A stretch of DNA of 64,000 bases from Candidatus Uhrbacteria bacterium (GCA_016188495.1 JACPHU010000029.1:11136-75135); one strand, 5' to 3'; shown: positions 12,124 through 51,563, counted from the first letter of the stretch. Notes: a model not told the origin generated them from the letters alone. Numbers and translations are program-made.

Positions 12124-12536
12124 CAACCTCCCTTATTAAGTAACCTTTTTGTCAGAATGTTCTTACTTTTCTGAAAACTGACCGTCAATAATCACAAAAT
12201 AGGCCTATTTTGTCAAATGATTCATCTTTGTGTCATCTTTGCTGGTCGACACGAGACCGTTGAAAAACTCGAATATCATGCCAAATTTTATTCCCTGAAC
12301 TGTTCGTCGTGAGCTAGTCGAACGATCGAAGGGGCAAAATTTGGCTAAATCATCTGCGGCCTTCGACGGATTCGACAAGCTCACGACAGACAGGCTCAGG
12401 CAATATGAGGAGTATTTCAACGGTCTGGACACATAGGTTGACAAATGAGTTTTTTTCTGATAAATAAAAAATGTTTCTATTGTAAACACGATCCGCACAC
12501 GTTTAAGACAAGTTGCGGAGATACCAGGAGAATTCC

Positions 12537-13247
12537 ATGAAACGATTCGGATTTTTTGTTTTTTTCTCAGCAATCTTTTTTCAAATCCTTGGAGTACAGC
12601 AATGTAGTGATGAGGACGCCGATGGGGACGGATGGACGGTGGAGGATGGGGATTGCGACGATACCAACTCATTCGTTCATCCTGGGGCACAGGAGGTTTG
12701 CGATTTGGCGGACAATGACTGTGACGGCACGGTCGATGAAGATATTCCTGATTGTGAGTTGACGGGTATTTGCACAGACCCGTCGGCAACAATCGACGAA
12801 TTTTCGTTTGATTGTGTCGATAACGACATTGTTTCGAGTCAGGAGAATATATTACCTCAAAATGTGTTTTTCTGTTTTTATAATGAGTCTGTACTCATCG
12901 CAAATCAGGATGTTCAGGTCCAGGGATATAACCTCTGGACTGAAGAGGTGACTGCAGGTAACGAAGACGAGGTTTCGTTATTTGTCTGGAAGGGATATTC
13001 TGCCTCTGTTGAGTTAAGTGAAGGATGGTACGGAACCAGTGTTGAGACAACGACTGACCTTTTTAGACTGGACATCGTGACTCCTCAAGAACCAGAGAAA
13101 TTTGATCAGCTATTCGCTACCGGTTTTGTTGAGTTTAGGGATACGGGAGAGGAGGTAGAACTGATAGCTGTTGCCGCCGCTTTCGATGTTCAGTGGGGGC
13201 AAGGAGAATCTGAAGAAGGGTGCATTGAGCACCTCCAGGATTTTTGA
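12537..13247 (+). CDS. secreted protein with MopE-like putative metal-binding motif
   Basis: Signal peptide MKRFGFFVFFSAIFFQILG with AGGAG RBS. DADGDGW..GDCDD.N..VHPGA.EVCD..DNDCDG..DE matches the Asp/Cys-rich 'putative metal-binding motif' repeat. Confidence 0.5.
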   Translation: MKRFGFFVFFSAIFFQILGVQQCSDEDADGDGWTVEDGDCDDTNSFVHPGAQEVCDLADNDCDGTVDEDIPDCELTGICTDPSATIDEFSFDCVDNDIVSSQENILPQNVFFCFYNESVLIANQDVQVQGYNLWTEEVTAGNEDEVSLFVWKGYSASVELSEGWYGTSVETTTDLFRLDIVTPQEPEKFDQLFATGFVEFRDTGEEVELIAVAAAFDVQWGQGESEEGCIEHLQDF

Positions 13248-13358
13248 TCTTTTTATCGCCTGTAGTTAATTCATCGTTTGACGATTCCCGGAGCCTTTGC
13301 AGGTTTTGGGAATTTTTTGTTTTCGTATTCCTTGATACGGAAATATGACAGTTCTACT

Positions 13359-14714
13359 TTAAATCGCTTTATTATTCTCCATATACTCAAAAAGATGACC
13401 TAACATTCCTTGTGGGGAAACCAAGAAAAAGAGGGTTGTTCCGTCATATGTTAAAAAAAGTTGTGTCGCAAGGAGTTGTCTTTCTCGTTCTCTTTCTTTT
13501 GCTTTTTTGAAAGCTTCGATAATGTCTGGTCGTTTTTCCGCAAGCGTTGCCATAAATGCTCGTTCCGCTTTCAGTCTCTTGATGAACGGCTTATCTTCAG
13601 ACGTATCTTGTTGTATATGGTGTTGGAGTTCTTCCAGTATGTTACGTATGGCATCTGCTCGTTTTTCGTCTGGGTAATAAGACGCAAAGGCATCTATATA
13701 CACGCCAAATTCTCGTACAAGATTTGCTTGTCTGTCTATTGCCAATGAAATGGCTTCATCTTCTTCTTTTAAGAGCCGTTCAAGAGCTTCCGAAAACTTC
13801 TTTTTTCGTTCAGCTTCTTTCTCTTTTTGGTCTGAGGAGGTCTCTGTTTTTGTATCTGACCGATCCTTTTTCACAGGTTCGATACGCGTCTTATCCATTT
13901 TTTGTTTTAGTTGATCAACTAAAAGCATCACACGATAGAGAGCCTCATTAGCAAACACAAGATCTTTTTTAAAAGTCTGCAGAGCGTTTGTTTCTATGTT
14001 TCCATTTAATCTAGCTTCCTCTGTGATCCATCCGTCATTTTGAAGTATGGTGCCATACTCGGACAATGTGCTGTTTAGTAGCAACATCAATTTATAGGGA
14101 TCCGTCTCTTTAAGAGTTGAAGCACCGCCTTGTTCTTGAATAAGTTCCATATGAACCTTGATCGTTTCACGAATCGTTCCAAGAACGGGACTTTCTGTAC
14201 GTTTCAATTTGTTTGTAATTATTTGAAGTTCTGTAGAAATTCTATCTAATGACACACGAACGTTGTCATAGATTTTTTCGCAACTTTGACGGAAAACTGT
14301 TTCTGCTTTTTTCGCGACCCTGTCTCTTTCCATTTGTTCTTTTTTGCTTTCTGTTTCTAGATGATCTGTATATTCTGATCCAAGAGTTACCATAACACCC
14401 AGCGTCTCCGTCATTGCTTCAGAAACTCTTGCTAATGAAATGGATTGAAGGGTTTCTGTATCTGCCAAAAGTGTTAATTCATTTCGCAGACGTCTATAAC
14501 GATTAGCCGTCATTTCTCCTTTCTCTCCATCTTGTTTCGCATGGTTCATTCTTGGATCAAAAAAATCATGCACTTCATCCTCAAACATCATGTCATGTTG
14601 AGTCAATTCAATAATTTCTTTAACGACGTGTGTTTTTGTTGGGCAATCCGGAGCATGTACATTTGTATGCTTTGGATATCCGCAATGTGAACAAATTGGT
14701 TTTTCGCCTTTCAT
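13359..14714 (-). CDS. hypothetical coiled-coil protein with N-terminal Cys/His cluster
   Basis: 451 aa. N-terminal CSHCGYPKHTNVHAPDCP and a long charged helical region. Confidence 0.45.
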   Translation of the reverse strand: MKGEKPICSHCGYPKHTNVHAPDCPTKTHVVKEIIELTQHDMMFEDEVHDFFDPRMNHAKQDGEKGEMTANRYRRLRNELTLLADTETLQSISLARVSEAMTETLGVMVTLGSEYTDHLETESKKEQMERDRVAKKAETVFRQSCEKIYDNVRVSLDRISTELQIITNKLKRTESPVLGTIRETIKVHMELIQEQGGASTLKETDPYKLMLLLNSTLSEYGTILQNDGWITEEARLNGNIETNALQTFKKDLVFANEALYRVMLLVDQLKQKMDKTRIEPVKKDRSDTKTETSSDQKEKEAERKKKFSEALERLLKEEDEAISLAIDRQANLVREFGVYIDAFASYYPDEKRADAIRNILEELQHHIQQDTSEDKPFIKRLKAERAFMATLAEKRPDIIEAFKKAKERERERQLLATQLFLTYDGTTLFFLVSPQGMLGHLFEYMENNKAI

Positions 14715-14929
14715 AAAAATGTCGATGTTTTTTTGAGCGAGAGCTACTCTTTAAGGTGTGAATGACGAAACTCGATGAGGCATTGTTCAATTTCCTGCCT
14801 GAGAATCAATGATGGATTTCAATTCTTCAAGACGTGATTGTTTGATTTATTTCAGCGGAGGTTTTTTGACTCGAATAGGGGACAGCTTTGGAACTGTTGA
14901 TTGGAAACAAGTGTTGAAGGGAAGGTTAT

Positions 14930-15577
14930 TTAATCTTTATGTTCACTAATTTTTAAAAGAGATTTTATTCGGATGATTCCATATCCAATAAGCAAAATAC
15001 CAACAATGAAATTGAGTATTTGGATGATAACCAACGGGACCACTTCTTTAACAAGCGAAAACACAATAACAGAAGTACCCATGAATAAGAATGTTGCCAG
15101 TCCAGTAGACAATCCAAAAATGACTAACTCAGGCTTTGTATAGCGGTATTCGATCGCTTTTGCAGAAAATAAACCAGTAAAGAAGACGATCGTCATCGGG
15201 CTAGAAATGGTAAGAAGAAAAACAGAGGTAAAGCTTGAAACAAAACTCGATGAGTTTACCGTTGCTAGATGAGAAAGATCTTTTCCTACAATTCCATTTA
15301 TCATGATTGTGCCAAACACGATCAAAATCAGAGAACTAAACAAGCCAAATATTTTTTTGAATTTCTTTTTTTCAAGAAGTTTCCCAACACCCAGTATGGC
15401 AAGAGCGATATAAAAATAATCCACGGTCGTTACAGCCAACACGCCTGCCAATCCATTCAAAAAAGATTTTTGCAGGGTGAGATTGACGATAAAGAAAAAA
15501 ACAGGCCCCACAGCCAATTGGAGAATTAATCCTGTGAATAATCCTTTTAAAAAAATTCCTACATTCATCATATTCAT
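14930..15577 (-). CDS. LysE/RhtB-type small membrane exporter (putative)
   Basis: About 210 aa with six predicted TM helices. The N-terminal LQLAVGPVFFF resembles the LysE family. Confidence 0.45.
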   Translation of the reverse strand: MNMMNVGIFLKGLFTGLILQLAVGPVFFFIVNLTLQKSFLNGLAGVLAVTTVDYFYIALAILGVGKLLEKKKFKKIFGLFSSLILIVFGTIMINGIVGKDLSHLATVNSSSFVSSFTSVFLLTISSPMTIVFFTGLFSAKAIEYRYTKPELVIFGLSTGLATFLFMGTSVIVFSLVKEVVPLVIIQILNFIVGILLIGYGIIRIKSLLKISEHKD

Positions 15578-16266: not shown

Positions 16267-16381
16267 TGATGATTCAGGGGTCGTTTCTCACCGTCTGTGT
16301 AGTCATACGGTTGTCGTGGTTCCAATTCCACGATGCACCAGATGAAATGATGAGTTTATTGGCTCGGCATCGTGGAGGATA

Positions 16382-17056
16382 TTAGAACTGCGATTCAAAA
16401 TCATGATGGGTTTCTTTTGATTCCGGTTTTGAATCGATAATCAATATCTCGTTAAGCAATTCAGGCAGTTCCTTGATCAGAAAGCTGAAATGCCCTCGAT
16501 TTTCAAGACTGATCACCGTGGCGTCCAGCTTCCGCTTGTAGTACTCAACGGCCCGGAGAATGAAATCCCAGTCGTTCGAGACAAAAACGGTCACCCCTTC
16601 GCTAATCTGCACCGTGAGTGCGGGCGGGATGTCATACGTGTAGAATTCTTCCTCGTACGGAAGTAACGGGCTGTCGTCGCGCTCCATTCCCGGTGCGCCC
16701 GGAGCAATGAGGATGACCTTTCGAACCTTCTTTCCAGTCTCCCCCAAGTATCGCAAAACCGCATAGCCACCCGCACTATGTCCGACGAAGATTGTCTCCT
16801 CGTTGATCTCCACACGATCCAGAGCCTCCTTCCATTCGTCCCATCGCGCCTTCCAGGCTTCCTTGACGATCGGACATACGACAACATACCCACGCATCTC
16901 CAGCTGATTCTTCGTCCACCCCATCCAATTTCCAGGATTGTTCGAATCGCACAGCGAGATGTCCGCGATCAACTTACCATCTATCTTCTCAGGCCATCTG
17001 CCGTGCAATAAAATAACGTTTTTCATACACGGGTAGTTTATCAGTTCGAACCCCAC
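16382..17056 (-). CDS. alpha/beta serine hydrolase (YdeN/RBBP9-like)
   Basis: ILLHGRW...GHSAGG nucleophile elbow. 224 aa. Confidence 0.6.
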   Translation of the reverse strand: MGFELINYPCMKNVILLHGRWPEKIDGKLIADISLCDSNNPGNWMGWTKNQLEMRGYVVVCPIVKEAWKARWDEWKEALDRVEINEETIFVGHSAGGYAVLRYLGETGKKVRKVILIAPGAPGMERDDSPLLPYEEEFYTYDIPPALTVQISEGVTVFVSNDWDFILRAVEYYKRKLDATVISLENRGHFSFLIKELPELLNEILIIDSKPESKETHHDFESQF

Positions 17057-17077
17057 CCTGTCTCGCTCAAAAACTAA

Positions 17078-17117
17078 AACAAAATCCCAGCATTTCTGCT
17101 GAGATTTTGTTGGCTCC
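17078..17117 (-). terminator. palindromic terminator-like element, copy 1 of a 40-bp repeat
   Basis: On minus strand caaaatctcagca-gaaa-tgctgggattttg followed by ttttagttttt. Identical 40 bp at 18127..18166. Confidence 0.55.
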
Positions 17118-17188
17118 GTATACTGAACGGATTCAGAACTACAAATTGGAGCCAGAGCTTTGAATTAGTATCTCGTTTATCGAGAACA

Positions 17189-18073: not shown

Positions 18074-18126
18074 AATAAGGACAGGATACCAAATCTATAA
18101 CTAGTTCTGAAGTCCTACTTGTGTAT

Positions 18127-18166
18127 AACAAAATCCCAGCATTTCTGCTGAGATTTTGTTGGCTCC
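18127..18166 (-). terminator. palindromic terminator-like element, copy 2
   Basis: Same 40-bp sequence as 17078..17117, followed on the minus strand by ttttgttat. Confidence 0.55.
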
Positions 18167-18242
18167 CAGAGTTACGTGCTTTCCGAACTGGTGAACATCT
18201 ACCGTCCAGTGCAGTTGAGCATGGGAAGGGCACAGAGGTGGG

Positions 18243-18905
18243 CTATTGCTGGTTCCTTATGAGGTGTTTGTTGTAACCAGAATCAATGAGTCGTTGATAT
18301 GCTTCCATAATCTCAATCGGAATTTCTTGAGGAATTTGGAAGCCTTTGTTTGGATATTCAATGATCCGCTGGAGATCACCCACCATGATATTGATGAGAG
18401 CTTCCTGATTGATGGAACCATCTAAATAGGCCTCAAAATCTAGTTGGGGAGAGGCCAGAAAAAGCTCCTTATCGAGCCACTTCACCTTTGCTGTGGCATA
18501 GGCTCTTCGTTCCATGTACGGCTTGGTCACGACGATTACAGTAGAAAAATCGAAACCATTCCTATCCAGCAACTGCTTGCTGAGTGCAAAGTTATCACCT
18601 GTGTTTTGTGCCTCGGTTTCAAGTATGATGTTGTCAGCAGGTACACCTGCTTTTTTCATGACATCTGCAAATTCTTCTGCCTCGGTTTTTTTCCATCCCG
18701 TCTCAAGCAAATCACCGATGTGGGCCATACCACCTGAAATGATCACAAGTGGAGCGAGTCCACTATTGAAAAGTTCAGCCGCATATTCTGCAACACGTAA
18801 GTCGTGACTGCCTAATACTAAGATGAGATCAGCTTCATGAAGCGACTGATGCAGACGATGATATTCGTACAAGATTTTTGCGTCTTCTGAAAGACTCATG
18901 TGCAT
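18243..18905 (-). CDS. DUF218 / YdcF-SanA-ElyC family protein
   Basis: DLILVLGSHD...VIISGG pattern characteristic of DUF218. Confidence 0.6.
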   Translation of the reverse strand: MHMSLSEDAKILYEYHRLHQSLHEADLILVLGSHDLRVAEYAAELFNSGLAPLVIISGGMAHIGDLLETGWKKTEAEEFADVMKKAGVPADNIILETEAQNTGDNFALSKQLLDRNGFDFSTVIVVTKPYMERRAYATAKVKWLDKELFLASPQLDFEAYLDGSINQEALINIMVGDLQRIIEYPNKGFQIPQEIPIEIMEAYQRLIDSGYNKHLIRNQQ

Positions 18906-19060
18906 TGTCTAAAAATACCCGTAAAAAATGGTTGAAGGATTTCCGTCTTGATCCCGTAATCAATCTCCAGCTGTTCGCTAAACAGGCGAGATGACCTGAG
19001 CACGACACCCTCGGCGTCCCAAAAGATTGCTTTAATATTCGCTTTTACATCAGCGTTCAT
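18896..19060 (-). pseudogene. truncated duplicate of the N-terminus of the HAD hydrolase gene at 50001..50618
   Basis: Minus strand encodes MNADVKANIKAIFWDAEGVVLRSSRLFSEQLEIDYGIKTEILQPFFTGIFRQCT* (54 aa). About 85% nt identity to 50495..50630. Ends in a stop overlapping the DUF218 start. Confidence 0.5.
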
Positions 19061-19317: not shown

Positions 19318-21513
<2,196 letters not shown>

Positions 21514-21537
21514 TCACCAGATGAACTGATGATTTTG

Positions 21538-21647
21538 TGCTGGCTCGGCGTACGGGTGTCGAACTCGGTTTTGATCAATGATTCAAGGGGTATTTCAGAC
21601 GGCTAGAATAGCACCCGGGTCTCATCGAAAATGAGACAAATGAGACA
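21538..21647 (-). repeat. modular conserved intergenic element, copy A (tRNA 3'-end-like motif + hairpin)
   Basis: Blocks tgctggctcggcgtacgggtgtcgaactc / tttgatcaatgatt / gggtctca..aaaatgagacaaatgagaca are shared with 26538..26645 and have a variable middle. Lies immediately upstream of the collagen-like gene. Confidence 0.6.
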
Positions 21648-21732
21648 ACGAGAATGGGGCCTGTGTCTCAAATCAGGAATACGATGGTTTCAAGGGCTTT
21701 TCACAATAATCCTATGTGCACCTTACGGCAAA

Positions 21733-22245
21733 TCATATCTTCCTGCTGTCATAAGCCCAGTGCAGAACAGCCTGTCTTTGTGCAGGACGACAGGTCAAAT
21801 CTTTCGCCCGACAATTCTTTCTGATTTGTGATGTGTGTCTGGCAATGGCTTTCCATCTCTTGATTTGTCGCTCGTCTTCGATGGGAAGTCGTCTGCCCAT
21901 GTAGTAGCGGCAATACCACTGGAACCAACCGCGAGGATCGTGCTCTTCGTTGATCCATCCTTTTTCCTGCCAAACCTTTAGTGATTGGCTGGCATGTTTG
22001 TGAAAAAAATTGATCGTATCATCGTGATGCTCCGGCGAAAGCTTGGCATGTGTGAACCAGTTTTTGGGAAACTCTTTTTGGCAGTCGGTCATGTACTTGC
22101 CGCCAAAGACGCCAAGTGCGAGCATTTCCTTTGGCGTAAGTTCCGGCTTGAAATCGGGATGGAAATTCCGTCCCACCGGTGCGGTGAGTTCGTATGTGTA
22201 ACCCTTCTGAAATGTATCGTTCACCTGGACAGACTTTTTTCTCAT
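21733..22245 (-). CDS. conserved hypothetical protein
   Basis: 170-aa ORF with no recognisable catalytic motif. Confidence 0.4.
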   Translation of the reverse strand: MRKKSVQVNDTFQKGYTYELTAPVGRNFHPDFKPELTPKEMLALGVFGGKYMTDCQKEFPKNWFTHAKLSPEHHDDTINFFHKHASQSLKVWQEKGWINEEHDPRGWFQWYCRYYMGRRLPIEDERQIKRWKAIARHTSQIRKNCRAKDLTCRPAQRQAVLHWAYDSRKI

Positions 22246-22439
22246 AGGTGTTTATCGGTCCACAAGATAGACGACCAGTAAAAATAATCCACCCCACCAG
22301 CCAATATCGGAGACAATGAGGCTTGCCATAATTTTTGGCGACTATCCCATAAAGTATAGTATAAAGTGAGGAGGGTGTCAAGGGAAAATGGTTATCAACA
22401 GTTTGACTATATCCTGAAATACAAAATCAGGATATACTT

Positions 22440-23375
22440 TTGTATATGAATGCAACCATGCTTCGAGATAAGGCTTGGGAAACCACAAACCGTATCCCTA
22501 GTTGGGTTCGTGGTCGTGAAATTTCTCTTGACCAATACAATACATTACCAAACATCGCTGAGTATTGTTGGGATTCTTTTCAAAAGTTTCTCAAGAGAGA
22601 AAAGGTAACTCTCGGCAACTATAAAATCATTGAACCAAGTGCTGGCACTGGTTCCTTTTATGATTTACTTCCAAAAAAACAGCGTATAGGTATCGACGTG
22701 GATAACATCCGTGATGATTATATTCAACATGATTTTTTAACATGGAATCCTGATATAGATGATCGACCATGTATTGCTGTTGGGAACCCACCTTTTGGGT
22801 ATCGCGGATGGCTCGCGCTCGCATTTATGAACAAGACTGCGGAGTTTTGTGATTATGTCGGATTCATTCTTCCGATGTCGTTTCAAAGTGATGGAAAAGG
22901 GAGTCCAAAAAATCGCGTTCAAGGTATGCGTTTGGTACACTCCGAAGAATTACCAAGCAATCTTTTTGCTCTCCCCGATGGGGAGATAAAACAAGTAAAC
23001 ACACTTTGGCAAATTTGGAAGAAAGGTGAAGCTCCACATTTACCTGATTTAAGCCTTTGCGATGAATACGTTGATCTATTTACTGTCGATCTCCGTAAGG
23101 AACGACTTTGTGGAATGAATAAAATAAATCAATGTGACTTTTTTTTGCAACGTACATATTTTGGCGATCATCCAACACCTGTGAAGTCGTTTAACGACGT
23201 GAAATACGGATGTGGATATGGCGTTCTTTTTAAGAATAAAAAGCGTGAAATCAAGAAGATACTAAATAACATTAACTGGAACAAATACAGCAACCTAGCC
23301 ACACATAATTGTCGGCATATTTCCATGTACCATATCAAGTTGGCAATTTTAGATAATCTATATGCCAAGTCCTGA
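22440..23375 (+). CDS. gamma-class N6-adenine DNA methyltransferase
   Basis: Motif I EPSAGTGSF precedes motif IV GNPPFG. Confidence 0.7.
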   Translation: MYMNATMLRDKAWETTNRIPSWVRGREISLDQYNTLPNIAEYCWDSFQKFLKREKVTLGNYKIIEPSAGTGSFYDLLPKKQRIGIDVDNIRDDYIQHDFLTWNPDIDDRPCIAVGNPPFGYRGWLALAFMNKTAEFCDYVGFILPMSFQSDGKGSPKNRVQGMRLVHSEELPSNLFALPDGEIKQVNTLWQIWKKGEAPHLPDLSLCDEYVDLFTVDLRKERLCGMNKINQCDFFLQRTYFGDHPTPVKSFNDVKYGCGYGVLFKNKKREIKKILNNINWNKYSNLATHNCRHISMYHIKLAILDNLYAKS

Positions 23376-23883
23376 TTTCAGAACACTGTTTCTTGAGGCA
23401 TTAGTGAAGAACGTGGATAATCCTAAATGGAAAGAGGGTGATTTTGTTGGAATTAAAACGGTATCAAATACTAAAGTTGGGAGCGTAGGACAAGATTTTA
23501 TTGAAGGGCTTTGTAGCGCGTTGTCTATTCAGTGTAACTTCCCATTGAGGGGTGACGGCACAAGAAAGACGCAAAACTCTTGGGATATTGAAATAAATGG
23601 TATCAAGTTTGAGTTAAAAACAGCCACTGAAGATGTAAGCGGAAGTTTTCAATTCAATCACTTGCGTTATCACAGACCCTATGACGCAGTGCTGTGCCTA
23701 GGTGTAACTCCAAACGAATTATACTTTGGGTTGTGGTCAAAAGCTGACGTAGCGACTGGAAAGGCTGGGAGCCTTGTCTCTATGGAAAAAGGAGCAAATG
23801 CTTCTTATAAACTGACCAAAAAATCACGCGATCTTTTCCCTATTGTAGAATTTGAGCAAAGAATAAAAGGGTTTACTGTATGA
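23362..23883 (+). CDS. putative cognate Type II restriction endonuclease (PD-(D/E)xK-like)
   Basis: 14-nt overlap with the methyltransferase gene. WDIEINGIKFELK resembles a D..E.K core. No database support available. Confidence 0.35.
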   Translation: MPSPDFRTLFLEALVKNVDNPKWKEGDFVGIKTVSNTKVGSVGQDFIEGLCSALSIQCNFPLRGDGTRKTQNSWDIEINGIKFELKTATEDVSGSFQFNHLRYHRPYDAVLCLGVTPNELYFGLWSKADVATGKAGSLVSMEKGANASYKLTKKSRDLFPIVEFEQRIKGFTV

Positions 23884-23889
23884 ATAAAG

Positions 23890-24830
23890 ACAACAAAAAA
23901 ACGACCGATAAAGTCGCTTTCTTCTCCCTTCTCAACAAGGCTATGCGGACACCACCTGCAAAAGCAAGTGGAAAAGATGTTCGTCCGCAGTCCGCAGATT
24001 CCATCTCCAAACGTGTTCATCGAGATACTTCTGCAAGTGTTTAGGAGAGATTGAGTGGTGCGTGCCGTCAATGGAACGCTTTAGCTGGCTCCAAAAGCCC
24101 TCGATTGTGTTTGTGTGTGCTTCTCCTTTCACATACTCCTTGCGTCCGTGATTGACTGTCTCGTGCTTGTAGCCCATTTTAGACGCTTTGCCGTAGCTTT
24201 GATATTCGTCCGTCATAAGCGTTGCGCCGACTTGCACGTTTTCACGCACGATTGCCATGACTGTTGACGCTTTCGTGTTTACTGTCGCTTTTGCGTAAAC
24301 TCCACCGCCTCGCTTGTGAAGTCCAACGACTGGTGTTTTACCTTCTGCTCCACGTCCTCGTTTTCCTTTACGCTTGCCTCCGATGTACGTTTCGTCGGCT
24401 TCCACGATACCACCGAATATGTCAGGCATTTGCTCCATGAGCTGACGAATCTGATATGCCATGCGCCATGCACACTTGTAGGTGACACCTAGCTGTCGCT
24501 CTAGCTCCTTAGCTGATACTCCATTCTTCGCTGTTGAAAACAAGTACATAGCAAAGAACCATTTATAAAGATCGGTGCTTGACTTTTCAAAGATTGTTCC
24601 TTGTTTAGGGCTGATCTGATGACCACCACAAGAACACACGAAATGGCTTGTAAACGCTTGAAGGTGGTATTTACCAGATTGCTTGCACGTTGGGCATACA
24701 GCGTCCTTGTGAAGTGATTCAAAGAGGTATTTCAAACACGCCTCGTTGTTAGGGAATTGCTTATTAAATGATTGGATTGTGTACTTCGCTTGCTTCATAT
24801 AGACACACCTTAGCAGGTATGCTACTATAT
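23890..24830 (-). mobile_element. IS1595-like insertion sequence (boundaries approximate; inverted repeats not resolved)
   Basis: Single transposase gene with short flanks. Confidence 0.4.
23941..24798 (-). CDS. IS1595-family (ISXO2-like) DDE transposase
   Basis: N-terminal Zn-finger CPTC...CSCGGHQ, DDE region with ADETYIGGK and TNTIEGFWSQLKR signatures. Confidence 0.8.
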   Translation of the reverse strand: MKQAKYTIQSFNKQFPNNEACLKYLFESLHKDAVCPTCKQSGKYHLQAFTSHFVCSCGGHQISPKQGTIFEKSSTDLYKWFFAMYLFSTAKNGVSAKELERQLGVTYKCAWRMAYQIRQLMEQMPDIFGGIVEADETYIGGKRKGKRGRGAEGKTPVVGLHKRGGGVYAKATVNTKASTVMAIVRENVQVGATLMTDEYQSYGKASKMGYKHETVNHGRKEYVKGEAHTNTIEGFWSQLKRSIDGTHHSISPKHLQKYLDEHVWRWNLRTADEHLFHLLLQVVSA

Positions 24831-25229
24831 GTCAAGGGATAGTCGCCTAATTTTTTTTTGCCAAGAAGCTGGCAAAAGTTCTCCGGAACGTCCCTCTTTC
24901 TCACGCCTGAGCAAGAAAGGGCTCACGCTGAAAGAGAGAAAGGAGCCGTTAACGATGAGGGTCAACGCGATGAGCGCATGCATGAGCGGAATGCCGGAAA
25001 AATCGTGTGTGCGGTAGAAAATTAAACCGCCGACAACGGCAAGAGTAACGCCAGCCCAGATCATGGGCTTTGTGACTTTGTGCGTTCGGGTGGTGGCTTC
25101 AGTCCAGTACGATGACGTTCGGCCGAGAAAGCCGTGGATGTCTATCACGGTCACTGCTCCCAGACCGATAACAAAACCGGCGAGAAGTAAAAATAATCCT
25201 ATAACGTCAAGCCACTCGACGAAGCTCAT
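24825..25229 (-). CDS. hypothetical membrane protein
   Basis: 134 aa with four predicted TM segments. Confidence 0.4.
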   Translation of the reverse strand: MSFVEWLDVIGLFLLLAGFVIGLGAVTVIDIHGFLGRTSSYWTEATTRTHKVTKPMIWAGVTLAVVGGLIFYRTHDFSGIPLMHALIALTLIVNGSFLSFSVSPFLLRREKEGRSGELLPASWQKKIRRLSLDI

Positions 25230-25238
25230 AGAAACAAA

Positions 25239-25724
25239 TTAGTTGAGAATCCAAATCGAATAGTTAAGATACGCGGCGAAACTGACCCAAAGAATGTACG
25301 GCGTAAGAATCCACGCGGCTGGTTTGGAGACTTTTGCAAAAGTGATGATGGTTGCCACAATCGCAAGCCAGAGGAACATGATCTCCACAAGCGCACCGCC
25401 TGGGCTATGCAGACCGAAGAAGATCATTGACCAAAGCGTGTTTAAAACCAATTGTCCAATAAAAATACTGAGTGCGATTTTTACATCCTTGCGTTCCAAC
25501 CCTTTCCTCCATACCAAAAATGCGGCAATGCCCATAAGGACGAAGAGCGTCGTCCAGACTGGTCCGAACACCCATGCCGGAGGATTGATGGCTGGCTTCG
25601 CAATTTCCGCGTACCACCCAACGATAGACCCTGTCGTGAATACCGATCCAATGATGCCCGCGAGCTCAGAGATGACGATGGTGATAACGAGTTTGGATCG
25701 GTTGTTTATTTTCATGTGATTCAT
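25239..25724 (-). CDS. tspO: TspO/MBR family tryptophan-rich sensory protein
   Basis: WYAEIAKPAINPPAWVFGPVWTTLFVLMGIAAFLVW matches the TspO signature. Confidence 0.8.
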   Translation of the reverse strand: MNHMKINNRSKLVITIVISELAGIIGSVFTTGSIVGWYAEIAKPAINPPAWVFGPVWTTLFVLMGIAAFLVWRKGLERKDVKIALSIFIGQLVLNTLWSMIFFGLHSPGGALVEIMFLWLAIVATIITFAKVSKPAAWILTPYILWVSFAAYLNYSIWILN

Positions 25725-25820
25725 TAAAGCCTTTTCATCTCGTGCTGATATTTTAGCAAATTTTGTGGTTTAGTTCGAGTAATTACTGAGAAATAATGAC
25801 TCGCTTTTCGTTCTGGCTTT

Positions 25821-25897
25821 AAACAAAAAATCACCATTTTTTAATGACGATTTTTTGACAAAGCATGTGGGTCTACTCACACGCCTTCTCATGGCTC
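25821..25897. repeat. ~80-bp direct repeat, distal copy of the tRNA-Asn 3' flank (includes terminator hairpin)
   Basis: aaacaaaaaatcaccattttttaatgacgattttttgacaaagcatgtgggtc.actcacacgc.ttctcatggctc is nearly identical to 51408..51496. Confidence 0.7.
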
Positions 25898-25989
25898 CGC
25901 GTCGTGGGCGATGTTAGGACTGCGATACAGGAATATGATGGGTACATTTCGATTCCGAAACTTACAGCGGTTGATTTGGTTTATTCAAA

Positions 25990-26451
25990 CTAGAATATCT
26001 TTGCAGAAAGTGAAAGGAGTGGTTTACATTCTTCTCTCATAAATTCAGGATACAATTCTAATTTTGGATCGCCAGCAGCTATAACATTTGCAGCAGGAAT
26101 CATGACTCTCCATTTGCTTTCATCTGTTCGATCTTCTCGACTTGCTCCGTAAACGATTCCTTCCAGACGTGCCCAGATACAGGAGGATGCGCACATGGGA
26201 CAGGGTTCATACGTTGTATATAAATAACATCCTTTGAGTTTTGTAGACTGTAATTTTTGTGCAGCAAGACGAATGACATTAATTTCTGCGTGTGCTGTCG
26301 GATCAAGGTCGCGACGAACGGATGTGAATGCTTCCGCGATCACTTCGCCGTCTTTTACGATCAAAGCTGCGACAGCATGTCCGCCTTCCTGATATTTCGC
26401 TCGAGCAAGATCAATGATTCGTTGCATGAGTTCTTTTGAAGGTTGAATCAT
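25990..26451 (-). CDS. CMP/dCMP-type zinc deaminase (TadA-like)
   Basis: HAEINVI...PCPMCASS zinc-binding signature. 153 aa. Confidence 0.7.
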   Translation of the reverse strand: MIQPSKELMQRIIDLARAKYQEGGHAVAALIVKDGEVIAEAFTSVRRDLDPTAHAEINVIRLAAQKLQSTKLKGCYLYTTYEPCPMCASSCIWARLEGIVYGASREDRTDESKWRVMIPAANVIAAGDPKLELYPEFMREECKPLLSLSAKIF

Positions 26452-26537
26452 AAAAGCAATTTAATTTTCAATTACATTCTACCAGTTCCCATTCCCACTT
26501 GGGTATAACAAAAAAACACCATATACATGATGTTTTT

Positions 26538-26645
26538 TGCTGGCTCGGCGTACGGGTGTCGAACTCAAATTTGATCAATGATTTAGGGGTTAATTCGCAG
26601 GACAAAACGAGCATGAGGGTCTCAGAAAATGAGACAAATGAGACA
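26538..26645 (-). repeat. modular conserved intergenic element, copy B
   Basis: Same conserved blocks as 21538..21647. Lies immediately upstream of the deaminase gene. Confidence 0.6.
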
Positions 26646-26686
26646 GTACAAGGGGTTTCTACGAGTAAGTAGAAATAACAGGATAT

Positions 26687-27751
26687 TCAAGCATTTTTCG
26701 AATTTTCTTGCTCAGAAAGTCGGCGAATCTCGTGATTGTCTACGTAGCCACGGAGTACTCCGATTAACGCTCCCAGCGTCGAATGAACGGATGATTTTAC
26801 GATTCTCCAGTTCGTTTCTTGAAGCGCTGTTTTGAGAACGGAATTTGCAACCTTTGTTGCAGTTATGTCGGATCGATCTTTGTTTGTGTCAAAAGCTGAC
26901 AACTGAATACGCAGACCGTTTGAAGTTGAAGGGTTCTTAATATGAACCTGTGTAAACCCAACGTCCTGTAGGGTTTTGACAAGTAGCTCTTGAAGTTCGA
27001 TAACGCGCAACTTTCGAATGTTTTGAATGTGTTCTGTGGTTTTTGATTCTTCTTCATTGGATTTCATTCGTTTCACGAATTCTCCCATCTGCTTCATGCT
27101 TTCTCTGGATTCAAGATACACTTTAAGCTCTTGATCATCGATACAATATTTCATCCGGTCCTCTGAAAAGTGCTCATCGATTGGTTTGATTTTGGGTGAA
27201 AAATCCATCTCTTCATGATCATTATTTCCACAGCTCTCGCATACTGAATCGAAAGTGACGATGTTGTCCGTACGAGTCGAGGTTTGTTTCACAACGGCAT
27301 TACATTTTGTGCATGTGTGTGGCTTGATTCGATACTCATTTCCATCATTAAAAAACGCACGTCGAGGAAGGCATCCGTTTGGACATTCATAAAACAAAAT
27401 GACTCTTTCTTGATCGCTTGAGGAATCAAAATGCTTATCCATGAAATTCATTTTTGAATAACAGCGTAAACAAGAAATATCATTTCGTGGCTCAGTGTCA
27501 TCAACCAACTTCTGATGTCTGAGATCGCGTTCTATCCATTCACGAATACGAGCATGCTTCATTGCTGCCCGTTCACCTTTTTTCATCCAAAGTAATAGTT
27601 TGTTTGCCGCAACCAGTAGCCTCACTTTTTCATCTCGATCAGGTTCATCCGACGGAATTTCATTCAACCGTTTTTTATGGGCTTCTTCATACCACCGACA
27701 CTCCTTCACAGTCAGACGATCATAAAAATCAGAGTACTCAAGTTCGTTCAT
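26687..27751 (-). CDS. hypothetical protein with Cys-rich zinc-ribbon-like segments
   Basis: 354 aa. CLRCYS...CPNGC and CTKCNA...CESCG. Confidence 0.4.
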   Translation of the reverse strand: MNELEYSDFYDRLTVKECRWYEEAHKKRLNEIPSDEPDRDEKVRLLVAANKLLLWMKKGERAAMKHARIREWIERDLRHQKLVDDTEPRNDISCLRCYSKMNFMDKHFDSSSDQERVILFYECPNGCLPRRAFFNDGNEYRIKPHTCTKCNAVVKQTSTRTDNIVTFDSVCESCGNNDHEEMDFSPKIKPIDEHFSEDRMKYCIDDQELKVYLESRESMKQMGEFVKRMKSNEEESKTTEHIQNIRKLRVIELQELLVKTLQDVGFTQVHIKNPSTSNGLRIQLSAFDTNKDRSDITATKVANSVLKTALQETNWRIVKSSVHSTLGALIGVLRGYVDNHEIRRLSEQENSKNA

Positions 27752-48207: not shown

Positions 48208-49542
48208 ATGTACGCACAAAACACGAACAACGATCCCGGCAAAGCCATACCAATCCGCTACTGCCTTTACGCGAGAAAATCGTCCGAGGATGACGAACGC
48301 CAGGCATTATCAATCGAGAGTCAGGTTAAGGAGGCACTTGAACTTGCTACGAGAGATGGCTTGAATGTTGTCGAAGTTCGCCGTGAAAGTCATTCTGCGA
48401 AAAGCTCCGGGTCACGCCCGGAGTTTAATCGTTTAATTGGGGACATTCGGGAAAAGAAATTCGACGGAATCCTAACATGGGCGGCGGATCGCATAAGTCG
48501 TAACGCCGGTGATCTTGGAACCGTTATCGATCTCATGGATCAAGGACTGCTTCGAGAAATTCTTACGCATGGCACAAAGTTCACCAACTCACCGAGCGAC
48601 AAGTTCATGCTCATGATGATGTGTGGTCAGGCAAAGCTGGAGAACGATAACAAGGGTGTGAACGTGAAGCGTGGGTTTCGGGCAAAGATCGAGATGGGTT
48701 TTCGACCAAACATGTCACCACTCGGATACCTCCACGATAAATATGCAGAAAAAGGAACATGTAAAATCTTTATGGATCCTGTTCGTGGACCAATTATCAA
48801 AGAAGTATTTCATAAAGTTGCCTACGAAGGTTGGACTGGGCGCAGCGTAAAACGCTGGCTCGATGATGAAATGAAGCTCACGACGCGCAAAGGTAAACAG
48901 GTATCGCTCAGCATGATCTACCGCATGATGGATAATTCGTTCTACACGGGTCGCTACGAGTTCCCGCAAGGAAGTGGAAAATGGTACGACGGTAAGCACG
49001 AGGCACTCATCACGAAGGATATATTTGATCGTGTGCAAGAAGTCATGAAATGCGCTCCGAAGGCGTTACCGGGAACTCACGAATTCGCCTTCACAAGAGT
49101 CTTCAAGTGCGGTGAGTGTGGATCCGGTATCAGCGCAGACCAAAAAGTGAAACGACTGAAAGACGGAACGACAAAACGATACGTCTACTATGGATGTATG
49201 AAGCGTTGGATGACAGGATGCAAACAGCCGTACATTCGCGAGGAGGAGTTGCTCGACCAGCTCTACAAAATCATCGATAAGGTAAACATCAATGAACTTG
49301 CAGCTATCGAGCGAATCAAACAAGAAATTGAGCGACTGACGAAGATGATCTCAAGCCTCGGCGGTCACATCGCGACCGCAAAAGTCGCCGAAATCATGCC
49401 GGACATCGATGTCTACGCTTGCGCGAAATACATCTTGAAAGAAGGCACCAAAGACGAGAAACGTGATCTGCTTAATCACATCAATACTGAATTGTTGATC
49501 TCTGACGGAAAGATAAGCTTCAAGGGTAAGGCTAAACGCTAA
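48208..49542 (+). CDS. large serine recombinase (resolvase/invertase catalytic domain + recombinase domain + zinc ribbon)
   Basis: YARKSSEDDERQALSIESQ with catalytic Ser, resolvase fold. CGECGSGISADQ zinc ribbon. AGGAG RBS. Confidence 0.85.
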   Translation: MYAQNTNNDPGKAIPIRYCLYARKSSEDDERQALSIESQVKEALELATRDGLNVVEVRRESHSAKSSGSRPEFNRLIGDIREKKFDGILTWAADRISRNAGDLGTVIDLMDQGLLREILTHGTKFTNSPSDKFMLMMMCGQAKLENDNKGVNVKRGFRAKIEMGFRPNMSPLGYLHDKYAEKGTCKIFMDPVRGPIIKEVFHKVAYEGWTGRSVKRWLDDEMKLTTRKGKQVSLSMIYRMMDNSFYTGRYEFPQGSGKWYDGKHEALITKDIFDRVQEVMKCAPKALPGTHEFAFTRVFKCGECGSGISADQKVKRLKDGTTKRYVYYGCMKRWMTGCKQPYIREEELLDQLYKIIDKVNINELAAIERIKQEIERLTKMISSLGGHIATAKVAEIMPDIDVYACAKYILKEGTKDEKRDLLNHINTELLISDGKISFKGKAKR

Positions 49543-50000: not shown

Positions 50001-50618
50001 TTATTCGGCAAGAAATCGCTTAAAACTTTCGAGGTTGGTGTAAAAATACGTTTCAAAACCTAGCTCTCTCGCCGTTTCAATGTTCTTTTCACCATCGTCG
50101 ACAACGAGGATGTCTTTCTTCGCGATAAGTTCACTAAACGGTGCGTGTGATGCCTGATTTAGGGCATCATAAACGTGCTCGTAATACATCGGATCTTTCT
50201 TAACCGCTCCAATTTGTCCCGAATAAAAAACACGTTCAAAAGGTTTACGATTGCCAAGAAGATTTTGTAAGTATCCTCCACGATACTTTTCTTGATCCGT
50301 CGTCATAAAACAACGAACACCCATATCACAAAACGTCTGTACGCAATCGAGAACCGTCTGATCAATCTGGGTGCCTTTCGTAAACCAGTATTCCATCAAC
50401 TCCTCAACCGTCCCTTTCCAGCCCCATCCAGCGATAACCTTGGAAAGCTCCTCTTTGAGGTCGGCTTTACCGATGGAACACTGCCTAAAAATACCCGTAA
50501 AGAAGGGTTGAAGGATTTCCGTCTTGATTCCGTGATCAATCTCTAGCTGTTCGCTAAACAGGCGAGATGACTTGAGTACTACGCCATCGGCATCCCAAAA
50601 AATTGCTTTATAGCCCAT
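50001..50618 (-). CDS. HAD-superfamily hydrolase (subfamily IA-like)
   Basis: Motif I IFWDADGVV. 205 aa. Confidence 0.7.
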   Translation of the reverse strand: MGYKAIFWDADGVVLKSSRLFSEQLEIDHGIKTEILQPFFTGIFRQCSIGKADLKEELSKVIAGWGWKGTVEELMEYWFTKGTQIDQTVLDCVQTFCDMGVRCFMTTDQEKYRGGYLQNLLGNRKPFERVFYSGQIGAVKKDPMYYEHVYDALNQASHAPFSELIAKKDILVVDDGEKNIETARELGFETYFYTNLESFKRFLAE

Positions 50619-51228: not shown

Positions 51229-51407
51229 AGTGCCTGAATGATAGCAACTTTTGATAAATTCCCACAGTCTGGCGGAATCGAACCTTGTCTGGGGATCGAA
51301 CCGAAAAAATAAGGCAAATTTCTTCTTTTGGGCATTTGAGAAAAATTCGATCAGTTTGCGTCCCAGATACTTCGGCTTTTTGGTCGGGCTACAAGAGTCG
51401 CTATTTG

Positions 51408-51496
51408 CTCAAAGACTAAACAAAAAATCGCCATTTTTTAATGACGATTTTTTGACAAAGCATGTGGGTCACTTCACACGCTTTCTCATGGCTCGG
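51408..51496. repeat. ~85-bp direct repeat, tRNA-proximal copy (tRNA 3' end + terminator hairpin + flank)
   Basis: Near-identical to 25821..25897. Overlaps the last 8 nt (GAGCCA...) of tRNA-Asn. Confidence 0.7.
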
Positions 51497-51563
51497 GGGG
51501 CGGGATTCGAACCCGCGACCAATTGGTTAACAGCCAACTGCTCTGCCACTGAGCTACCCCCGA
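51489..51563 (-). tRNA. tRNA-Asn (anticodon GTT), CCA encoded
   Basis: Minus-strand cloverleaf folds by hand. Acceptor TCGGGGG/CCCCCGA. D-arm GCTCAGTGGCAGAGC. Anticodon loop CTGTTAA. T-arm GCGGGTTCGAATCCCGC. Discriminator G then CCA. Confidence 0.85.

Follow-up and report, generated by a model that had tools for sequence, protein, structure and literature searches.

Repeated modules with a tRNA-Asn-like core as candidate end-modules of integrative islands in a Candidatus Uhrbacteria contig

We analyzed a stretch of 64,000 nucleotides (nt) from a Candidatus Uhrbacteria bacterium (GCA_016188495.1 JACPHU010000029.1:11136-75135), hereafter the window, which carries two copies of a repeated module on its minus strand, A (21505-21716) and B (26503-26700). 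Module A lies directly upstream of a collagen-like gene and B of a deaminase gene, and the interval between them contains a type II restriction-modification (R-M) pair, an IS1595 transposase and a TspO gene; gene calls confirmed this content, which an initial annotation had read from the sequence alone. Farther along the window are a large serine recombinase gene and a tRNA-Asn gene. Two origins had been put forward for the repeats: attachment (att)-like scars of tRNA-targeted integration, or a promoter or 5' untranslated region (UTR) reused upstream of two genes. We consider it fairly probable that A and B are attR-like end-modules of one type, belonging to tRNA-Asn-associated integrative islands in Patescibacteria (candidate phyla radiation, CPR). 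Island junctions anchored at tRNA genes are a known kind of feature; unusual here are the link to a serine recombinase, the structured arm, the reassorting halves and the CPR host, and literature searches gave no described tRNA-Asn/serine-recombinase system of Patescibacteria.

The repeated module

Comparison of A and B bears out the paired repeats as first described, in their coordinates, their shared orientation and their identical blocks around a variable core. The copies are identical over 30 nt (21537-21566 and 26537-26566; minus strand ...GAGTTCGACACCCGTACGCCGAGCCAGCA) and over 14 nt (21570-21583 and 26570-26583; TTTGATCAATGATT), and have in common GGGTCTCA (21617-21624 and 26617-26624) and TGAGACAAATGAGACA (21632-21647 and 26630-26645); amid these blocks lie about 35 nt of ~50-60% identity. 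The repeats are real and non-random. A whole-window repeat search places them exactly 5000 nt apart, start to start, and a 28-mer and a 21-mer of A/B each occur exactly twice in the window; shuffled controls gave a mean of 0.00 matches for the former and 0.01 for the latter, and no shuffle gave two. The conserved module reaches about 70 nt farther upstream than the limits first assigned, to ~21716 in A and ~26700 in B.

Read along the minus strand, each copy follows an upstream gene (170 amino acids (aa) for A, 354 aa for B) and runs through a conserved stretch, two copies of TGTCTCATT, a TGAGAC hairpin arm, a variable spacer, the block AATCATTGATCAAA, a tRNA-like core ending in CCA and a terminator, before the next gene begins. 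In A, the GTCTCA repeat cluster (21617-21670) is made of the TGAGAC arm, two direct TGTCTCATT and an inverted copy (21665-21670), and may hold sites for an Xis/BldC-like protein. Block 2 (21570-21583) includes a TGATCA palindrome, the core (GAGTTCGACACCCGTACGCCGAGCCA plus GCA; 21537-21566) is our candidate for the recombination core, and a rho-independent terminator occupies 21510-21536. Module A thus extends from its terminator to the upstream region of a lost gene, whose remnant ATG start is found at 21714-21716 on the plus strand. The equivalent parts of B are a GTCTCA hairpin with two direct TGTCTCATT repeats (26617-26645), block 2 (26570-26583), the core (26537-26566) and a rho-independent terminator (26508-26536, start approximate). 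Today the two modules double as terminators for the 170-aa and 354-aa genes upstream of them.

Related copies and a divergent partner gene

Related contigs from metagenomes and metagenome-assembled genomes (MAGs), numbered L006 to L021, came from a JGI metagenome scan and from loci fetched through protein homologues. With that scan and an nhmmer profile, ten full-length copies were obtained, from L006, L007, L009/L010, L013, L016 and the window. The copies in L006 and L007 found by the JGI scan have all three blocks identical and different flanking genes; nhmmer gave additional copies in L007 and L013. In the ten-copy alignment, GAGCCA and AGTTC are invariant (10/10), as is the 19-nt GTCTCA block TGTCTCATTTGTCTCATTT in the copies carrying it (9/9), and block 2 and the spacer are swapped for unrelated sequence in L009/L010. 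The upstream part of A is ~95% identical to that of copies L007a and L013a. Three Logan assemblies are the sole places where the window sequence itself turned up. Scanning 185,579 GTDB species genomes for 22 nt of the element core, and separately for the 26 nt at the tRNA-Asn 3' end, gave 0 matches each, which indicates that the lineage is not among the GTDB representatives. The element had no BLASTN match in PLSDB plasmids or INPHARED phages, and IMG/VR scans with three patterns gave none either.

The full-length module has a partner gene. In L006, a gene for a 170-aa protein lies on the other strand, with its start ~60 nt away from the GTCTCA repeats; homologues of this protein are 57-73% identical and belong to no Pfam family, and the module is found head-to-head directly upstream of the gene in 7/7 loci fetched by homologue plus L006. 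The window contains no intact copy, and in A, L007a and L013a only the first codons are left. The protein combines a zinc ribbon (CxxC...CxxC), a helical N-domain and an Xis/BldC/Cox-like C-terminal DNA-binding domain (AlphaFold pLDDT 89). Its C-terminal ~55 residues superpose in Foldseek on BldC, the phage P2 DNA-binding protein (4lhf), mycobacteriophage Pukovnik Xis and RacA, with probabilities of 0.6-0.94 and target TM values of 0.5-0.69, and we take this fold to be an Xis/MerR-like winged helix. Proteins of the Xis/Cox/BldC type bind direct repeats head to tail. The GTCTCA hexamers are most plausibly binding sites of the Xis/BldC-like protein, and we propose the TGTCTCATTTGTCTCATT region as a candidate arm site for a zinc-ribbon/helix-turn-helix protein.

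Gene callers run the Xis-like open reading frame (ORF) through the module, producing 'NETNET' peptides that are translated GTCTCA repeats. We rejected a coding module: the frame is interrupted by stops in A and L013, start codons are not conserved, and the nucleotides are conserved without synonymous variation, all of which identifies the extension as an annotation artefact. Called proteins bearing it are P0003, P0004, P0005, P0007, P0008 and P0012.

This arrangement leaves part of the promoter idea standing: the GTCTCA half is the upstream region of the divergent gene, lost in both window copies. It fails for the downstream genes, as does the 5'-UTR idea, since these genes vary from copy to copy and sit behind the terminator. 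They encode a collagen-like protein, a deaminase, an APH kinase, a 162-aa unknown protein, a 50-aa ORF (L016) and a 151-aa ORF (L009). Inspection by eye of every copy for a sigma70-type promoter of a minus-strand module transcript gave a conserved TTGAAA but no suitable -10 within 16-18 nt of it, and a further check also gave none. Between terminator and downstream gene, B, L006 and L007a share about 35 conserved nt, in which extended -10-like hexamers may be present, also read by eye. The collagen-like gene starts only ~20 nt past the terminator of A, which leaves no room for a promoter of its own.

The tRNA-Asn-like core

The minus-strand block GAGTTCGACACCCGTACGCCGAGCCA of A and B agrees with the 3'-terminal 26 nt of the tRNA-Asn(GTT) gene in the window (51489-51563, minus strand) at 20/26 positions without a gap, which upholds the resemblance to a tRNA 3' end seen at first. 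This match is unique in the window: besides the tRNA itself, only A and B reach at least 17/26 among all 26-mers, and windows simulated under a first-order Markov model gave 0 matches at 20/26 or above. The longest common run is CCGAGCCA (8 nt). The core retains A72, G73 and the CCA end of the resident tRNA-Asn; a 5' acceptor strand is absent. In L013a, L013b and L016 the same core is followed by a tail composed of a TGAG hairpin and a terminator, and this tail is also found behind the genuine tRNA-Asn genes of the window, L016, L018 and L020. In the window, this native tail occupies 51395-51488 and, with the gene (51395-51563 in all), anchors the series of junctions described below.

The core and the tRNA are homologous and diverged. 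The intact tRNA is on the same strand as A and B and the other junctions of the series, 25-35 kb away and with other junctions in between, and the displaced fragment falls short of near-identity to its 3' end. With six differences in 26 positions, the core is not a recent duplication of the resident tRNA-Asn. An intact tRNA with the acceptor TCGGCGT, which the initial annotation had suggested looking for, is absent from the window, and genome and metagenome scans returned no such tRNA gene; scanning JGI metagenome contigs with core parts gave two element copies and zero tRNA genes. The block, therefore, is tRNA-Asn-like but diverged, and was not freshly copied from a living tRNA.

Reassortment of module halves at GAGCCA

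Seven sites of the window combine GAGCCA with a terminator-type hairpin within ~10 nt, all on the minus strand, which is that of the tRNA. They form a co-oriented series: D (16365), E (17116), F (18165), A (21546), C (25897), B (26546) and tRNA-Asn (51494). Every site comes after a minus-strand gene or small gene group, and about 15 other minus-strand genes of the window have no site. Co-oriented series are found elsewhere, with four sites in L007, three in L009 and three in L016.

The additional modules, all on the minus strand, differ in make-up. Module C (25798-25985) joins a short left half (CATCAT..TCCTGTATCGCAGTCC..ACGACGCGGAGCCA) to the native tRNA-Asn-type tail, whose TGAG hairpin and terminator lie at 25798-25897. 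Module D (16335-16400) has a C-type left half and an A-like terminator without T tract, and appears decayed. Modules F (18124-18200; GTTC...GGGAGCCA and a terminator) and E (17075-17150; GTTCTGAATCCGTTCAGTATACGGAGCCA and a terminator) lie behind a DUF218 gene and a 294-aa gene, respectively. The short modules C, D, L016-8960 and L009-4215 align with the upstream CCATCGTATTCCTGA stretch and the core of the full element, and are devoid of the GTCTCA block, spacer and block 2. The 43-nt terminators of E and F (ACAAAATCTCAGCAGAAATGCTGGGATTTTGTT; 17075-17117 and 18124-18166) are 98% identical, and recur in L007, L009, L010 and L016 as a tail reused lineage-wide.

We classed 23 sites by the sequences left and right of GAGCCA, a type-1 tail being a simple A-rich terminator and a type-2 tail the tRNA-type TGAG hairpin tail. 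The element-type left half is joined to a type-1 tail in A, B, L006, L007a, L007b, L009 and L010 and to a type-2 tail in L013a, L013b and L016. The C/D-type left half has a type-2 tail in C and a type-1 tail in D, L016-8960 and L009-4215, and the E-type left half a type-1 tail in E and a type-2 tail in L007-2804. Type-2 tails follow all true tRNA-Asn genes with an encoded CCA (3/3) as well as a displaced tRNA fragment in L020. All three left-half families are hence found with both tail types, and homology breaks exactly after GAGCCA. Six shared bases would not suffice for homologous recombination; site-specific exchange at or beside the CCA end would yield such a pattern, and the crossover could be at GAGCCA or at GTTCGA.

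The displaced fragment of L020 belongs to a 2.8-kb islet (12441-15334) that sits within the tRNA-Asn 3' end and has the 18-nt direct repeat GATCCCCACCC(T/C)CGGAG. The islet encodes a radical SAM/SPASM protein and a 169-aa protein, and no recombinase. In the regenerated tRNA, CCA is not encoded, whereas the displaced fragment retains it along with the native tail. At the window locus, Logan contigs break at the repeat: SRR12113419_12593 (25,617 bp) runs exactly between the two copies of the tRNA-tail repeat, from 25844 to ~51460, and two more contigs, from SRR12113418 and SRR12113422, likewise end at 25844. These breaks are due to a 38-nt identical stretch and are not evidence for a circle.

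The serine recombinase and island architecture

The candidate island recombinase is a large serine recombinase of ~440 aa with Resolvase, Recombinase and Zn_ribbon_recom domains (48208-49542, plus strand), which provides a site-specific recombinase within the island. Searches with Pfam, PHROG, NCBIfam and PADLOC on the genes around A and B, and with Pfam on 46 of the window ORFs of at least 150 aa, gave no tyrosine integrase, and no tyrosine recombinase is present among the genes called on the fetched related loci. The notion of tRNA-targeted integration thus gains a recombinase that is linked to tRNA-Asn, but of the large serine type and not a tyrosine integrase.

The module forms the far end of a defence-gene island whose opposite end bears such a recombinase. 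In the window the order is B, cargo, recombinase, HIT/HAD/S51 genes, conserved flank and tail, tRNA-Asn and a CDP-alcohol phosphatidyltransferase gene. Locus L016, an 81-kb MAG contig of GCA_041643055.1 (JBGGHI010000082.1), is collinear with the window: the element, the Xis-like gene, defence cargo, the large serine recombinase and one variable gene are followed by ~230 nt of conserved flank plus tail, tRNA-Asn and the CDP-alcohol phosphatidyltransferase. Element, Xis-like gene, defence cargo and serine recombinase are all present in L021 as well. In 4/5 genomes (the window, L016, L018 and L020), the recombinase or its homologue (72-81% identity) is separated from a convergent tRNA-Asn by 1-4 kb (3.5-4 kb in L018 and L020), and the genes on the 5' side of tRNA-Asn differ among these loci. 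The source names of the homologues are Candidatus Uhrbacteria and Patescibacteria group, from which the window can be assigned to the CPR. The cargo of the window and related loci comprises type I/II R-M, CBASS, SNF2/NucS-like, Fic, caspase-like and LexA-methylase fusion genes.

Other features were observed around the tRNA. In L016 (17817-18450), tRNA-Asn(GTT) is split in the anticodon loop by a ~590-nt group I intron (RF00028, 63.6 bits), owing to which ARAGORN misses that tRNA; a 137-aa intron ORF contains an HNH-like CxxC...HH...CxxCH motif, read by eye, and has no Pfam match on record. A T-arm-like GGTTCGATCCCCAG lies 190-230 nt downstream of tRNA-Asn in the window (51271-51302), L016 (~17610), L018 (~14650) and L020 (~15040), and the window has a second T-arm-like motif, GGTTCGATTCCGCC, within the same interval. 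These motifs are conserved in four genomes precisely where their synteny stops, and may represent another att core. The window also has a 132-nt direct repeat of 89% identity (18903-19034 and 50479-50610, ~31.5 kb apart), whose first copy is a truncated 5' fragment (~55 codons, then a stop) of the HAD hydrolase gene that is intact at 50001-50618; the pair encloses the whole recombinase island with A, B and C. Base composition offers no contrast between the array and its flanks.

Interpretation

The module can be read as five parts: the upstream region of the divergent 170-aa zinc-ribbon/Xis-like gene; a GTCTCA cluster of two direct TGTCTCATT and one or two inverted copies; a variable spacer with the 14-nt TGATCA-containing block; a 26-nt core that would derive from the T-loop, acceptor strand and CCA of tRNA-Asn; and a transcription terminator. 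The succession of element arm, tRNA-like core and sequence 3' of the tRNA corresponds to an attR-type layout. We propose that islands with a serine recombinase at one end and the module at the other entered at or beside the 3' end of tRNA-Asn, the recombinase presumably acting on the cores and the Xis-like protein on the GTCTCA repeats. By accretion, newer islands would have displaced earlier ones outwards, and older islands would have shed their recombinase and Xis-like gene, leaving junction modules such as A. On this model, B would be the distal end of the present recombinase-bearing island (~26.5-49.5 kb), A the end of an older, decayed unit, and the segment between them a remnant unit in which junction C and an IS1595/R-M transposon of separate origin also lie. 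Since A and B carry the same arm on the same side of the core, they represent two junctions of one type and not the attL and attR of a single 5-kb segment. The idea of att scars, better supported than that of a 5' UTR, is thus retained, but not in the form of a pair bracketing the 5-kb segment.

If this is true, the locus is a hotspot where small-genome Patescibacteria store and exchange defence systems and accessory genes, tied to a conserved serine recombinase, a tRNA-linked target and a candidate directionality factor. Recombinase, sites and Xis-like protein would then be candidates for a new site-specific integration tool. The module provides a short tag (GTCTCATTTGTCTCA ... GAGCCA) usable for recognizing island ends in fragmentary metagenome assemblies. 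For the window, the value is mainly explanatory, accounting for the origin of the repeats and the cause of assembly breaks there; the importance would be much greater if the modules proved to be active recombination sites.

Several points weigh against the island reading. Of the 26 positions compared with the 3' end of the resident tRNA-Asn, six are changed in the core, whose 20- and 22-nt parts match no tRNA gene in the 185,579 species genomes and the JGI metagenome contigs. The core is nucleotide-identical in five copies with different flanks, which an RNA-level function could also explain. The tail types (1 in B, 2 in C, 1 in A) do not fit a simple one-at-a-time accretion. In L021, no tRNA-Asn is present within 10 kb of the recombinase. 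Large serine recombinases normally use ~50-bp sites without Xis-type arm sites, and Xis/Cox-like DNA binders classically partner tyrosine integrases; a serine recombinase accompanied by an Xis-fold DNA binder is an uncommon combination. For A and B, neither empty sites nor circular junctions or excision products were observed. Finally, sampling was small, the copies coming from about six contig families of a lineage absent from the GTDB representatives.

Comparable systems are known. In Dehalococcoides, serine-recombinase islands stand in tandem at the 3' end of ssrA, each bounded by a 3'-end repeat with extra conserved nucleotides beside it, and some units without integrase were read as accretion products or cis-mobilisable remnants (McMurdie et al. 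2011, PMC3146451). Our locus is similar in its Resolvase + Recombinase + Zn_ribbon_recom enzyme and its seven co-oriented 3'-end-like sites. It differs in its target, tRNA-Asn; in a diverged 26-nt core (20/26) versus an exact 20-bp repeat; in a single ~440-aa recombinase versus the DsiB/DsiA pair; in its host, Patescibacteria; and in a distal end with a conserved arm, GTCTCA repeats and an Xis-like gene. Prochlorococcus tycheposons are tandem, tRNA-flanked elements with cargo and defence genes, in which new arrivals push old ones into the island and earlier events are recognizable from degenerate remnants and scattered partial tRNAs; large serine recombinases serve a minority of them (bioRxiv 10.1101/2020.12.28.424599). 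The window shares with them cargo/defence-carrying elements at a tRNA gene and partial-tRNA remnants. Unlike tycheposons, which mostly have tyrosine recombinases and replication modules, it has no recognised replication module, and its junction module is longer and more structured. By the Islander definition, an island has an intact tRNA at one end, a displaced co-oriented 3' fragment at the other and an integrase inside (PMC4383910). The locus conforms in having an intact tRNA, a co-oriented displaced 3' fragment and a recombinase gene within, and departs from that model, with its tyrosine integrase and near-identical fragment, through its serine enzyme, diverged fragment and same-side junctions A and B. 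As in the lambda attR P-arm, P2 Cox boxes and BldC repeats, ~9-bp direct repeats are located 70-90 bp from the core and adjoin a gene for an Xis/Cox/BldC-fold domain, binding being predicted in our case; unlike those systems, the 170-aa protein has an added helical N-domain and a zinc ribbon, and there is no tyrosine integrase.

Of the other explanations, the one that survives best is an integron-like cassette platform, which we regard as unlikely though more probable than the others. Here a resident serine recombinase at the tRNA-Asn 3' end would treat all 'GTTC...GAGCCA + terminator' modules as live sites, with tRNA-Asn as the primary one; cassettes of 1-3 genes would be gathered by swapping halves after CCA, and the zinc-ribbon/Xis-like protein on the GTCTCA repeats would set directionality. 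Small-genome bacteria would thereby have a dedicated means to gather and shuffle defence and accessory genes. The exact reassortment of module halves at GAGCCA speaks for it, as do small co-oriented gene units ending in modules (D, E, F, A, C and B in the window, four in L007), a recombinase gene 72-81% identical amid DNA that varies on both sides from its stop codon on, and a common cassette start after different modules, GGGTGGGGTTCGAA following both module E and the L009 element. With integron arrays the locus shares co-oriented small gene units ending in a partly conserved site and a recombinase gene heading the array; unlike integrons, it has no IntI tyrosine recombinase, and its sites are tRNA-derived, include terminators and end in GTTC...GAGCCA. 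An integron attC site proper was rejected, since tyrosine recombinases are missing from the window ORFs of at least 150 aa and the fetched loci; by eye, with no motif search, the attC R''/R' core (RYYYAAC...GTTRRRY) was not noted in the modules. What makes the platform doubtful is that there is no sign of ongoing activity, that D without its T tract and cores strongly divergent between module families look like decay, that terminators in the modules would require each cassette to have its own promoter, and that only about 25 modules were looked at.

A still less probable origin, in our view, is a terminator repeat comparable to repetitive extragenic palindromes (REP) or miniature inverted-repeat transposable elements (MITE), in which the tRNA-Asn 3' end and a terminator spread to gene 3' ends independently of island integration. 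A working-looking terminator with compensatory stem changes in every module, the near-identical E and F tails and the position of modules exactly at gene 3' ends agree with it. Against this, the alignments read by eye disclosed no terminal inverted repeat (TIR) or target-site duplication (TSD), and the whole-window search no inverted repeat, a dedicated search not having been made. Moreover, one orientation prevails throughout, the copies are confined to 16-27 kb and the tRNA, the ~15 other minus-strand genes have no module, and full-length copies go with a single partner gene and with the recombinase island. A MITE or other repeat derived from an insertion sequence (IS) was likewise set aside, as module ends have neither TIR nor TSD by that same reading by eye, with no dedicated search, whereas the IS1595 transposon has both.

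RNA-level features

A hairpin with a T tract comes directly after each copy on the minus strand. The terminator stems vary in sequence across copies with pairing kept, and hold G.U pairs, which on the plus strand would become C.A mismatches, the stem of A being compatible with the minus strand only; the minus strand is accordingly the transcribed sense for the terminator. Single-sequence folds gave minus-strand z values of -2.8 and -2.1, mostly from the terminator and the GTCTCA hairpin; on the plus strand they were not significant. The body of the module behaves otherwise: RNAalifold on four copies found zero compensatory pairs and several broken ones, and in a fold of 14 short modules the common structure was limited to weak GUUC/GAGC pairing.

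Rfam was run at gathering thresholds on the full window and at E = 10 on 21300-27000, and returned tRNA-Asn and two chance matches only; its sole tRNA match in the window is at 51492-51563. ARAGORN (default, relaxed, with introns, with tmRNA) reported nothing at A or B, relaxed settings being noisy everywhere. A folded tRNA or tRNA-like RNA was ruled out by these two results together with an A.C mismatch in the T-stem equivalent of all copies and the missing 5' acceptor strand. A riboswitch or other cis-regulatory leader is not supported, in view of the lack of an Rfam match, the lack of covariation in the body and the unrelated downstream genes. More broadly, a functional RNA, be it a minus-strand small RNA, a t-element-like signal for 3'-end processing or stability, or a leader or attenuator of the downstream gene, would suit the minus-strand terminator with a CCA-ending tRNA-like sequence just 5' of it, the nucleotide-level conservation of the blocks and the cramped start of the collagen-like gene, but the failures of Rfam, ARAGORN and RNAalifold just described, the defective T-stem and acceptor, the replacement of block 2 and spacer in L009/L010 and the variety of downstream genes make it improbable, and the least likely of the explanations considered.

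The segment between A and B

The R-M pair and the transposase belong to a 2511-bp IS1595-family transposon (22337-24847), with terminal inverted repeats GGCGACTATCCC/GGGATAGTCGCC and an 8-bp TSD, TAATTTTT, at 22329-22336 and 24848-24855. Having its own inverted repeats and TSD, this transposon is unrelated in origin to A and B, which do not bracket an R-M/IS islet as the initial annotation implied. It comprises a type II methyltransferase gene (22440-23375; PADLOC 7.8e-60), a restriction endonuclease gene (23362-23883; 1e-7) and the IS1595 transposase gene (23941-24798). In-silico removal of the transposon turns a 134-aa ORF (24825-25229) into a 155-aa membrane-protein ORF, which indicates that this gene was interrupted by the insertion.

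Beyond the transposon, the interval contains the TspO gene (25239-25724), junction module C and the TadA-like deaminase gene (25990-26451). TspO is also found in the downstream flank of the L016 locus, with 70% nucleotide identity. On the other side of A, the collagen-like gene (19318-21495), which also bears a PG_binding_1 domain, encodes a 725-aa protein in which this peptidoglycan-binding domain is followed by ~300 residues of G-X-Y; at the DNA level, the gene has 17 overlapping repeat copies.

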